A stretch of 64,000 nucleotides of DNA from Bacteroidota bacterium. GTDB taxonomy: Bacteria; Bacteroidota; Bacteroidia; Chitinophagales; Chitinophagaceae. The notes beneath the pieces are model-generated. The model was not told the origin of the DNA. It worked only from the letters and a program-made list of their open reading frames with translations, and ran no database searches. Both the position numbers and the translations under genes were made by a program. Each line of letters begins with the position of its first letter. Position 1 is the first letter of the stretch. The stretch covers positions 14,380 through 78,379 of the forward strand of contig JAFDYE010000482.1 in the NCBI GenBank assembly GCA_018267585.1, read 5' to 3'. This document shows, in pieces, positions 16,225 through 45,148 of the stretch.

Positions 16225-17163
16225 TTATTTTGCCGGGGTCAGCACAATATTTCTATATTCGATTGGCCCGTGATCGCCCTGCAGATAGATGGGGCCCGGC
16301 TCGCCTTCCCTGCTGTCAAGCGCACCACCCGTAATACCAGGTATCTCCTGGTTACAGATGACCGTCTTGCCATTGAATACGATCGTGACCAGCCTCCCGA
16401 CCAGGGTAATATCGTAGGTCTGCCACTCCCCCGCCTTCTTCACGCGCTGCTCGCTGGGCGAAAGAAAGCCATAGACGCCGCTGATCTGGTTATTGTAAGG
16501 CTCCGTTCCGTCTTCGTCCTCGATCTGCACCTCATAACGGCCCCTCAGATAGACGCCGCTGTTGCTTTCCCTGGGATAACGGAATTCGATATGAAGCTTG
16601 AAGTCGGTATACTTTCCGTCCGTGATGAAATTGGAGCCTGACCTCGGACTTCTCAGCACACCCGAGACGGCCTCCCACTGGTTGGTCTTGCCGGACGGAT
16701 GCCAGCCCTGAAGGTCCTTGCCGTTGAACAGAGGGATCGGCTTGCCCCATATCGGTGCCGTGGTCCGCTGCAGCTTGGGAGCCCGGTGAGCCGACCATTG
16801 ATAGGATTTGCCGTCGGGGTTGGTCAGCGTCCCGCTCAGACTATCTCCCCGGAACGTACCTTCGACGGTAAGATCGTTATCGCTACGCTCCCACTGCGGA
16901 GGTATGGAGAAATGAAACTTACCGGCATCATAATAGATCTTTGAGATAGGACGGGCGCTGCCGCCACCGCCGACAAAACGGCCAACCAGCGTGTGTACAC
17001 CCGAGCGGATGACCTCCAGCCAGGAAGGAACTTCGCGGTCGGACTGGTGAACAACGATGTCCCATCGTCCCTCAATAGTGGAATCTGTCGGATAATAGCC
17101 GGCGTGGGCAACAGAAATACAGAACAGCAACGGGAAGGCAAGCATGCCAATGGCCTTTTTCAT
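16225..17163 (-). CDS. DUF1080 (3-keto-glycoside hydrolase-like) exported protein
   Basis: LFNGKDLQGW, DFKLHIEF, NSGVYLRG, YEVQI, GEWQTYDI, GPIYLQGDHGPIEYRNI. Confidence 0.9.
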   Translation of the reverse strand: MKKAIGMLAFPLLFCISVAHAGYYPTDSTIEGRWDIVVHQSDREVPSWLEVIRSGVHTLVGRFVGGGGSARPISKIYYDAGKFHFSIPPQWERSDNDLTVEGTFRGDSLSGTLTNPDGKSYQWSAHRAPKLQRTTAPIWGKPIPLFNGKDLQGWHPSGKTNQWEAVSGVLRSPRSGSNFITDGKYTDFKLHIEFRYPRESNSGVYLRGRYEVQIEDEDGTEPYNNQISGVYGFLSPSEQRVKKAGEWQTYDITLVGRLVTIVFNGKTVICNQEIPGITGGALDSREGEPGPIYLQGDHGPIEYRNIVLTPAK

Positions 17164-44646: not shown

Positions 44647-44717
44647 TGCCCAATAGTATAATGGTAGTACGTCAGATTCTGGATCTGAGTGTCTTGGTTC
44701 GAATCCAGGTTGGGCAA
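44647..44717 (+). tRNA. tRNA-Gln (anticodon CTG)
   Basis: Acceptor stem TGCCCAA/TTGGGCA; anticodon arm TCAGA-TTCTGGA-TCTGA; T-loop GGTTCGAATCC; CCA not encoded. Confidence 0.95.
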
Positions 44718-44907
44718 CAAGTGACCCCTCGCTTCGCGAGGGGTCTTTTTTTTGCACGGAAGCGAAGCGAGTTTACTCGCGTGAGCGGACGGGCAAAAAA
44801 AGACCATCCGGCGCCAGCCGGATGAGGTCACTCGGGTAATGTAGGGCAGGGGGGATCAGCCCGTCCCACGACGAAGGAGTGGGCGGGATAATCCAGGTTG
44901 GGCAACA
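44702..44907. mobile_element. Miniature tRNA-integrated element or island scar, bounded by an 18-bp direct repeat of the tRNA 3' end
   Basis: aatccaggttgggcaaca at 44702..44719 and 44890..44907, with a separate terminator after each copy. About 170 bp of hairpin-rich non-coding DNA between them. Confidence 0.65.
44723..44753 (+). terminator. Intrinsic terminator after tRNA-Gln
   Basis: gacccctcgc-ttc-gcgaggggtc followed by T8. Confidence 0.9.
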
Positions 44908-44923
44908 GAAAAAAAGTAATTTG

Positions 44924-44956
44924 CCTTGTAATACAAACTGTTACAAGGTTTTTTTT
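44924..44956 (+). terminator. Second intrinsic terminator, after the displaced tRNA 3' fragment
   Basis: ccttgtaa-N9-ttacaagg followed by T8. Confidence 0.7.
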
Positions 44957-45110
44957 AATGGGTACACCAGGCGACAGCCAACCCACCCGAAAAACTACCA
45001 CTTAGTTGTATTGTCCCCGGAAAATACCCGCGTTAGCTTTGTGGCACCTAACAGACCATAGGGTACGACTCCAAACATAAAACTACGGACGGTTTTACAG
45101 TGAAGAACAG

Positions 45111-45148
45111 AAAGGCCGGGCACAGCGACAAGCGAAGCCCGGCTTTTT
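45111..45148. terminator. Hairpin terminator downstream of the M28 gene, possibly bidirectional
   Basis: aaaggccgggc-N15-gcccggcttttt. Confidence 0.6.

Follow-up and report, generated by a model that had tools for sequence, protein, structure and literature searches.

tRNA genes are the classic landing sites of islands, and the sites themselves are usually treated as passive. The locus described here raises the question of what has come to lie behind a tRNA gene whose 3' end is present twice. The sole tRNA that ARAGORN and Rfam find in the window, by which we mean the whole 64,000-nt stretch of Chitinophagaceae DNA that was analysed, is tRNA-Gln(CTG). The original prediction was that the last 16 nt of this gene plus 2 nt recur 188 bp downstream, that each copy is followed by its own hairpin-T8 terminator, and that the interior is non-coding and has no integrase. 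All of these observations held. A repeat search recovered AATCCAGGTTGGGCAACA as an exact 18-nt direct repeat (18/18) at 44702-44719 and 44890-44907, spaced by 188 nt, where about 6e-6 such repeats would be expected by chance in a 901-nt stretch. A terminator scan placed a terminator-like hairpin with T8 after each copy (44723-44745 and 44923-44949) and also reported a terminator-like site on the minus strand, formed by hairpin c (listed below) and the A-run. No mobile-element gene, integrase included, lies near the repeats; the neighboring genes encode a GH92 enzyme, a fucosidase, an M28 peptidase and a T9SS-sorted protein. A GC-rich inverted repeat followed by a T-run also lies on the plus strand at 45111-45147, between this locus and the M28 peptidase gene.

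We found that 44719-44907 is one copy of a family of gene-less modules carried by soil bacteria of the genus Puia and its relatives. The tRNA, the two repeat copies and the parts of the module are as follows, in window coordinates:

44647-44718/44717, plus strand: tRNA-Gln(CTG) gene (ARAGORN; Rfam tRNA, 64.6 bits)
44702-44719, plus strand: left repeat copy, the last 17-18 nt of tRNA-Gln, from A58 of the T-loop
44720-44726, plus strand: 5' strand of P1, the closing stem of a four-way junction, pairing with 44826-44832 (structure mapping)
44723-44753, plus strand: terminator T1, with a 10-bp stem, a 3-nt loop and T8 (terminator scan)
44727-44741, plus strand: hairpin a, the inner 6 bp of T1 (helix 2, 6/6 pairs covary)
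44742-44758 with 44790-44805, plus strand: long arm P2, T-run on A-run (inverted repeats I2/I3, MFE folds)
44767-44780, plus strand: hairpin b, at the tip of P2 (MFE folds)
44806-44823, plus strand: hairpin c, with 7 bp and a 4-nt loop (helix 7, 7/7 pairs covary)
44826-44832, plus strand: 3' strand of P1 (structure mapping, covariation)
44833-44852, plus strand: unpaired linker with a conserved motif (consensus of 42 copies)
44853-44894, plus strand: 3' stem-loop, GGAT at 44853-44856 pairing with ATCC at 44891-44894, the start of the repeat (MFE folds)
44860-44887, plus strand: hairpin d, inside the 3' stem-loop (MFE folds)
44890-44907, plus strand: right repeat copy, a tRNA 3' end identical at 18/18 positions, its final ~12 nt unpaired
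44923-44957, plus strand: terminator T2, with an AT-rich 11-bp stem and T8 (terminator scan)

T2 is specific to this locus, having no counterpart in other module copies, and is probably the original terminator of tRNA-Gln. The window copy is solitary, sits amid ordinary genes and bears no sign of current movement.

A search with the interior against this genome and its relatives, which had been proposed as a check, found copies at other tRNAs. In the window genome, a second copy with an 80% identical interior lies directly behind tRNA-Gln(TTG) and ends in that tRNA's own 3' end, carrying C where the window copy has T. A profile search of the same genome yielded more copies on seven further contigs. 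Full modules stand behind tRNA-Ser(GGA) and behind a tRNA-like 3' end on contig C92, each with a repeat of its own type, and behind tRNA-Pro(GGG) the left part of a module remains alone. Since MAFFT and RNAalifold misaligned the helices when given unaligned copies, we wrote the structure out explicitly from the window copy and built a covariance model on it (R1; 128 positions, 41 pairs). Full-length R1 matches are present in 69 of 104 genomes of Puia (Chitinophagaceae), at 1-18 per genome, and outside the genus the fold occurs in a few other genera of the order; a Gln-type module also stands behind tRNA-Gln in Dinghuibacter and Sediminibacterium. The family comprises hundreds of copies of ~150-190 nt. 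In 25 of the 30 best loci, the tRNA ends exactly at the module start. Copies with no tRNA in front start after attR-like remnants of tRNA halves, and all copies abut either tRNA ends or such remnants. Counting five module-rich genomes and the loci fetched earlier, at least 16 tRNA species carry modules:

Arg-ACG, Arg-TCT, Cys-GCA, Gln-CTG, Gln-TTG, Lys-TTT and Val-GAC
Leu-CAG, Leu-GAG and Leu-TAA
Pro-GGG and Pro-TGG
Ser-CGA, Ser-GCT, Ser-GGA and Ser-TGA

We found no description of such modules in the literature. In Rfam, the tRNA alone reaches threshold, also when the threshold is relaxed, and other matches fall far below their gathering scores. The family appears to be undescribed. Three contigs binned to other lineages also carry the Gln-type module motif: L081 (binned as Synechococcus) and L085 (binned as Beijerinckiaceae) have it after tRNA-Gln, and L105, from the same Beijerinckiaceae bin as L085, has it without an upstream tRNA. 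All three are probably mis-binned Chitinophagaceae contigs.

The copies share a common plan: a terminator, a four-way junction, a YTTGGGTAA linker, a tRNA-adapted 3' hairpin and a copy of the tRNA 3' end. The original prediction had listed three additional hairpins (44767-44780, ~44806-44823 and 44860-44887) and likened them to REP hairpins. The hairpins are real, but they are not independent REP-like units: a single four-way junction includes the first and the second as arms, and the third is part of the 3' stem-loop. Compensatory changes occur in 6/7 pairs of P1 (helix 1), and helices 3-6, which make up the P2 region (44742-44805), covary as well. The outer 4 bp of T1 and its T-run have an alternative pairing in P1 and P2, and T1 folded as a terminator excludes the P1/P2 pairings, and vice versa. 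Across 42 sense-strand copies, 93.7% of cells are standard pairs, compared with 40-50% when the partners are slid by 1-3 columns; these figures favour the model, as the alignment was fitted to it, yet the margin is still large. In the same copies, 37 of the 41 pairs have changed on both sides, and every helix is supported. G.U pairs outnumber A.C (77 to 19) in the sense-strand copies, and the sense strand folds more stably than the antisense strand, by 4-22 kcal/mol. The fold is therefore selected on the tRNA-sense strand, either as RNA or as single-stranded DNA.

The best-conserved sequence of the family is the motif in the unpaired linker, YTTGGGTAAKG (CTCGGGTAATG in the window copy), which is identical in kind behind all tRNA types. 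Among the listed copies, the 3' stem covaries with the tRNA-specific base that follows ATCC (A-T, T-A/G, C-G), so that the sequence of each module is adapted to its own tRNA. In many copies the linker and 3' hairpin contain GCGG-NN-GGATCA(C)C (window 44833-44870 and equivalents), which we take to resemble the 3' end of 16S rRNA, a likeness that may be coincidence.

The terminal repeat behaves differently from the fold. It runs from A58/A59 of the T-loop to the tRNA 3' end (16-19 nt, with 0-2 extra bases) and is preceded by a conserved ...GNNNTA junction in all tRNA types. In many copies it matches the local tRNA at 16/16 or 17/17 positions, at +147 to +214. Its identity is bimodal, either perfect or decayed, and in tandem arrays of diverged modules the tRNA-proximal repeat is perfect and the distal one decayed. 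The repeat follows lineage-specific tRNA changes in several species, though not in all. Where it has decayed, the junction is still ~90% paired, and Sediminibacterium modules keep the junction, linker and 3' hairpin but have lost the unpaired tail. Given this bimodality, the patchy tracking of the tRNA and the retention of the fold without an intact tail, the repeat seems to be generated again and again by some process rather than kept by constant selection, whereas the fold is maintained.

The association between module and tRNA-Gln is old. Comparison of the orthologous tRNA-Gln(TTG) locus between Puia species gives identities of 75-85% for the upstream gene and 72-83% for the module, with no similarity beyond the downstream end of the module; divergence like that of the flanking gene, together with the copies in Dinghuibacter and Sediminibacterium, supports this age. 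Some sites that seemed empty carry truncated modules with T1 only. Other copies are nearly identical to one another and speak for recent copying. In genome G084, the modules of tRNA-Ser(CGA) and tRNA-Ser(GCT) are 98% identical, with the identity beginning in the tRNA 3' half that the two have in common and stopping precisely where the repeat ends. In genome G023, the junctions of the Arg-TCT and Lys-TTT modules are ~93% identical and their 3' parts are tRNA-specific. G084 also holds an array in which tRNA-Gln is followed by a module (M1) with its repeat, a 4-kb block, a pseudo-core (described below) and a further module (M0) that is 98% identical to M1. The 4-kb block encodes a beta-lactamase-family protein and an AAA_14/DUF4143 ATPase and has no recombinase gene.

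Larger elements use the module repeat as well. A frameshifted tyrosine integrase element (contig C264 of the window genome), a large serine recombinase element (genome G096) and the 4-kb cargo block of G084 all lie exactly at a module repeat, which indicates that the displaced tRNA end serves as a second attachment site. On sequence comparison, the tandem and cargo arrays, the 98% identical Ser copies and the elements at the repeat point to recombination. Before modules that lack a full tRNA, we observed pseudo-cores, which are tRNA 3' halves with a T-loop insertion of ~5 nt (TTCGA-RAA-NN-TGT-CC; examples are L039 5269-5296, L040 10674-10701, and G000 C323 and C564). The same form occurs at the right junction of the large serine-recombinase element in genome G009, and we read the pseudo-cores as attR junctions of larger elements inserted between tRNA and module. 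A similar altered T-loop behind Gln, Arg-TCT, Pro, Ser and Leu tRNAs suggests one family of tRNA-targeting elements with many specificities.

Several further observations concern these arrays. The G009 element encodes a 594-aa large serine recombinase with Resolvase, Recombinase and Zn_ribbon_recom domains (L040 1468-3252), and as its frame crosses tRNA-Gln on the opposite strand, its C-terminal codons overlap the attachment site. In two species, G009 (L040 8931-10261) and the window genome G000 (C16:1125-1245), a truncated module is joined to an AAA_14/DUF4143 ATPase gene at an identical point inside hairpin b. The same ATPase family recurs beside pseudo-cores in G009 and G084 and may either travel as a cassette or act together with the modules as their partner. 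ORFs of ~400 aa at array junctions were considered as integrases and turned out to encode AAA_14/DUF4143 ATPases or a beta-lactamase-family protein. A 405-aa ORF directly past an array junction in G007 (L039 7752-8969, minus strand) has no Pfam match. In G000, the same upstream flank with tRNA-Gln(TTG) is present twice (C137, reverse complement 16870-16941, and C517, reverse complement 139-210, against C16, L002 1670-1741), one version with a module and the other with a gene for a 408-aa tyrosine integrase directly after the tRNA. The two versions may stem from a mixture of strains in the MAG or from paralogous loci, and they could represent a pair of alleles that alternate in nature.

If modules move, which enzyme moves them? 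The window genome, which is 95% complete, has no TnpB (PF07282), no reverse transcriptase (PF00078) and no large serine recombinase. Serine recombinases are likewise absent from two module-rich complete genomes and are sporadic otherwise. IS110 is present in the window genome as a fragment only, and the matches to tyrosine recombinases in that genome are not adjacent to solitary modules. Y1_Tnp occurs in 54 of the 104 Puia genomes, a distribution that agrees poorly with that of the modules; the contig of the window genome that carries a Y1 transposase (C64) has no module. There is no small GIY-YIG nuclease gene near modules, the GIY-YIG matches falling in long frames, of 618 aa (the size of UvrC) and 466 aa, whose contigs carry no module. 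We also sought a strain in which the window site is empty, as the original prediction had suggested. Two exact-pattern scans of metagenome contigs returned no empty allele, and the contigs of four public runs gave low-coverage fragments of the filled form, with no read that skips the 188 nt. A clean filled/empty pair was found neither at the window locus nor elsewhere. The relatives do not all share one arrangement: truncated, tandem and larger cargo-bearing alleles are all present among them.

From these observations we infer a mode of entry for the module and a role for its fold. The reading that we favor, which we consider about evenly balanced between right and wrong, is that the module is a protein-less insertion module for tRNA 3' ends that is moved in trans, and that the displaced tRNA end stays behind as an attachment site. 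The module would enter at the T-loop/3' end of a tRNA gene with the help of a trans-acting enzyme, for which the likeliest candidate is a site-specific recombinase such as those of the larger elements at the same tRNAs. It would bring a replacement tRNA 3' end and a terminator, leaving the tRNA intact and pushing the original 3' end downstream. The conserved single-strand fold would be the cis-acting feature that keeps the module competent for recombination, with the 3' hairpin rebuilding a short duplex copy of part of the target's T-loop and T-stem. The displaced end would remain a working attachment site. Elements with an integrase or a serine recombinase, and cargo without a recombinase, could land either on it or on the tRNA, and this would explain the arrays. 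The evidence leans in the direction of the small, non-autonomous, tRNA-targeting element mobilised in trans that was originally predicted, but that idea has to be changed substantially: the window copy is one of a large structured family at 16 or more tRNAs, beyond tRNA-Gln, its hairpins make up a covarying four-way junction, and the family is old at some loci.

Besides the failure to find a mobilising enzyme or a filled/empty pair, further points weigh against this reading. If classical integrases moved a protein-less element, it is difficult to see how they would serve at least 16 target specificities. Gene conversion among modules already in place, instead of insertion, could also produce near-identical copies. 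Finally, the divergence that parallels the neighboring gene, the presence in other genera and the ~90% paired fold where the repeat has decayed are explained by a function selected in the host no less well than by selfish mobility. A variant with a substantial chance of being right, though less likely than not, is that the modules represent a new class of recombination site, folded from a single strand and bound to tRNA genes, with an enzyme that reads the four-way junction and the T-loop/T-stem hairpin. Such an enzyme would install or exchange modules at any tRNA 3' end through recognition of the sense strand, and each module would be a spare attachment site downstream of the terminator. If so, the module would resemble an integron in serving as a landing pad, one anchored at a tRNA, where cargo is captured and the tRNA gene is kept sheltered.

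The same fold could belong to an RNA. Under this alternative, the main rival, which we regard as rather unlikely but deserving of serious attention, the module is a trailer RNA with a function in the host. It would be transcribed together with the tRNA, be freed when the tRNA 3' end is processed, and have a role in, for example, tRNA maturation, insulation or regulation. The YTTGGGTAA linker would be its working site, and the terminal tRNA-like tail either a functional or an ancestral part. Compensatory changes in all helices, the G.U excess and the stabler sense folds all speak for an RNA, as do the start of the module exactly at the tRNA 3' end, the long retention behind tRNA-Gln across genera with divergence like that of the flanking gene, the survival of the fold where the repeat has decayed, and the same unpaired motif behind all tRNA types. 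The difficulty lies at the 5' end, where every copy has a canonical GC-rich hairpin with a U-run; with such a conserved terminator, most transcripts should stop too early to include the strands with which P1 and P2 are completed. Uniform retention of the repeat is also not what is seen, tandem arrays, cargo arrays and copy exchange are unexpected for a simple RNA gene, and no Rfam family matches. RNA could also act as a guide. The omega-RNAs of TnpB consist of a scaffold and a 3' guide, and by analogy the fold here might be a scaffold and the 16-19-nt 3' segment a guide that directs a nuclease or recombinase, acting in trans, to tRNA genes beside the universal TTCGA motif of the T-loop. The layout of a scaffold with a 3'-terminal segment identical to the target is suggestive, the segment starts right after the conserved TTCGA of every tRNA, and the fold lies on the sense strand. 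We nevertheless consider an RNA-guided homing element improbable: the window genome has no gene of the TnpB type, such a guide would also target the restored tRNA, the supposed guide has its first 4-6 nt paired in the module's own hairpin, and in Sediminibacterium the tail has been lost with the remainder conserved.

Two readings would make the module a relic. The original prediction had offered, as its other option, the scar of a collapsed island. Such a scar would be CIME-like, a larger tRNA-integrated element with an integrase of which the two ends are left. Direct repeats of the tRNA 3' end do flank the module as they flank islands, integrase and serine-recombinase elements do use these tRNAs, and the CIME concept is published (PMC5704250). 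However, the same length class, fold and boundaries recur hundreds of times at 16 or more tRNAs, a uniformity that random internal deletions cannot produce. Moreover, the modules contain no remnants of island genes, and the left ends of real integrase and serine-recombinase elements are unrelated to them, leaving this option little chance of being right. The remaining candidate, a decayed tandem duplicate of the tRNA-Gln gene, would account for the perfect tRNA 3' end in the downstream repeat. Neither ARAGORN nor the Rfam tRNA model finds a second tRNA or residual cloverleaf, and the interior has a non-tRNA fold common to modules behind unrelated tRNAs; we give this idea almost no credence.

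The preferred insertion module and its alternatives all concern the same arrangement, in which many tRNA genes carry a structured, protein-less module that is at once a duplicate of the attachment site, a terminator for the tRNA and a landing site. If the modules are mobile, they are a new kind of minimal element; if they are a host RNA or DNA device, they add a new layer to the biology of tRNA loci. Either way, hundreds of copies provide a well-populated, covarying alignment that is ready to become an Rfam-style family. Cultured carriers are available in Sediminibacterium salmoneum, Sediminibacterium sp. C3, Flavitalea sp. BT771 and Puia dinghuensis.

Among known systems, the modules most readily call to mind CIMEs and the tandem accretion of integrative elements at tRNA genes (Pavlovic 2004; Bellanger 2011; reviewed in PMC5704250). 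Like CIMEs, they lack genes and are flanked by attL/attR-like direct repeats of the target 3' end (18/18 nt in the window, and likewise at other tRNAs), and integration at the distal repeat builds arrays. CIMEs, however, are decayed islands of varied size and content, whereas the modules are uniform at ~170 nt, have a covarying fold, occupy 16 or more tRNA species and have no known parent island; their uniform matches to the 128-position model and their conserved fold are not those of deletion derivatives of a larger element. [quoted passage not shown] The motif just before the repeat, the large serine recombinases and the units without recombinase genes are shared features (PMC3146451). Those islands differ in being kilobase-sized and confined to a single locus, with an integration module, in contrast to a non-coding fold of 170 nt at many tRNAs. 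Resemblance to MITEs is slight: the repeat search found no pairing between the ends of the module, which by eye are not inverted repeats, and the duplication is 16-19 nt long and always a tRNA end, unlike a MITE target-site duplication.

REP/BIME and REPIN-RAYT sequences are multi-copy, non-coding, hairpin-rich intergenic repeats that persist for long periods, are dispersed genome-wide and carry no target-derived repeat. The modules share with them their copy number, lack of coding capacity, hairpins, intergenic position and persistence. They differ in occurring only at tRNA ends or beside tRNA-half remnants, and in that the presence of the Y1 transposase does not track them. A mechanistic analogy is offered by the integron attC site and the attP(+) site of CTX-phi, both of which are folded single-strand recombination sites. 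By eye, the modules show no R/L box motifs such as the R''/L''-L'/R' boxes of attC; they are also anchored to tRNA 3' ends and carry a terminator. What they have in common with these sites is a structure conserved beyond sequence, here evident from covariation and from the ratio of G.U to A.C, a strand-specific fold, a hairpin that rebuilds the target duplex and, as in attC, cassette-like arrays punctuated by folded sites.
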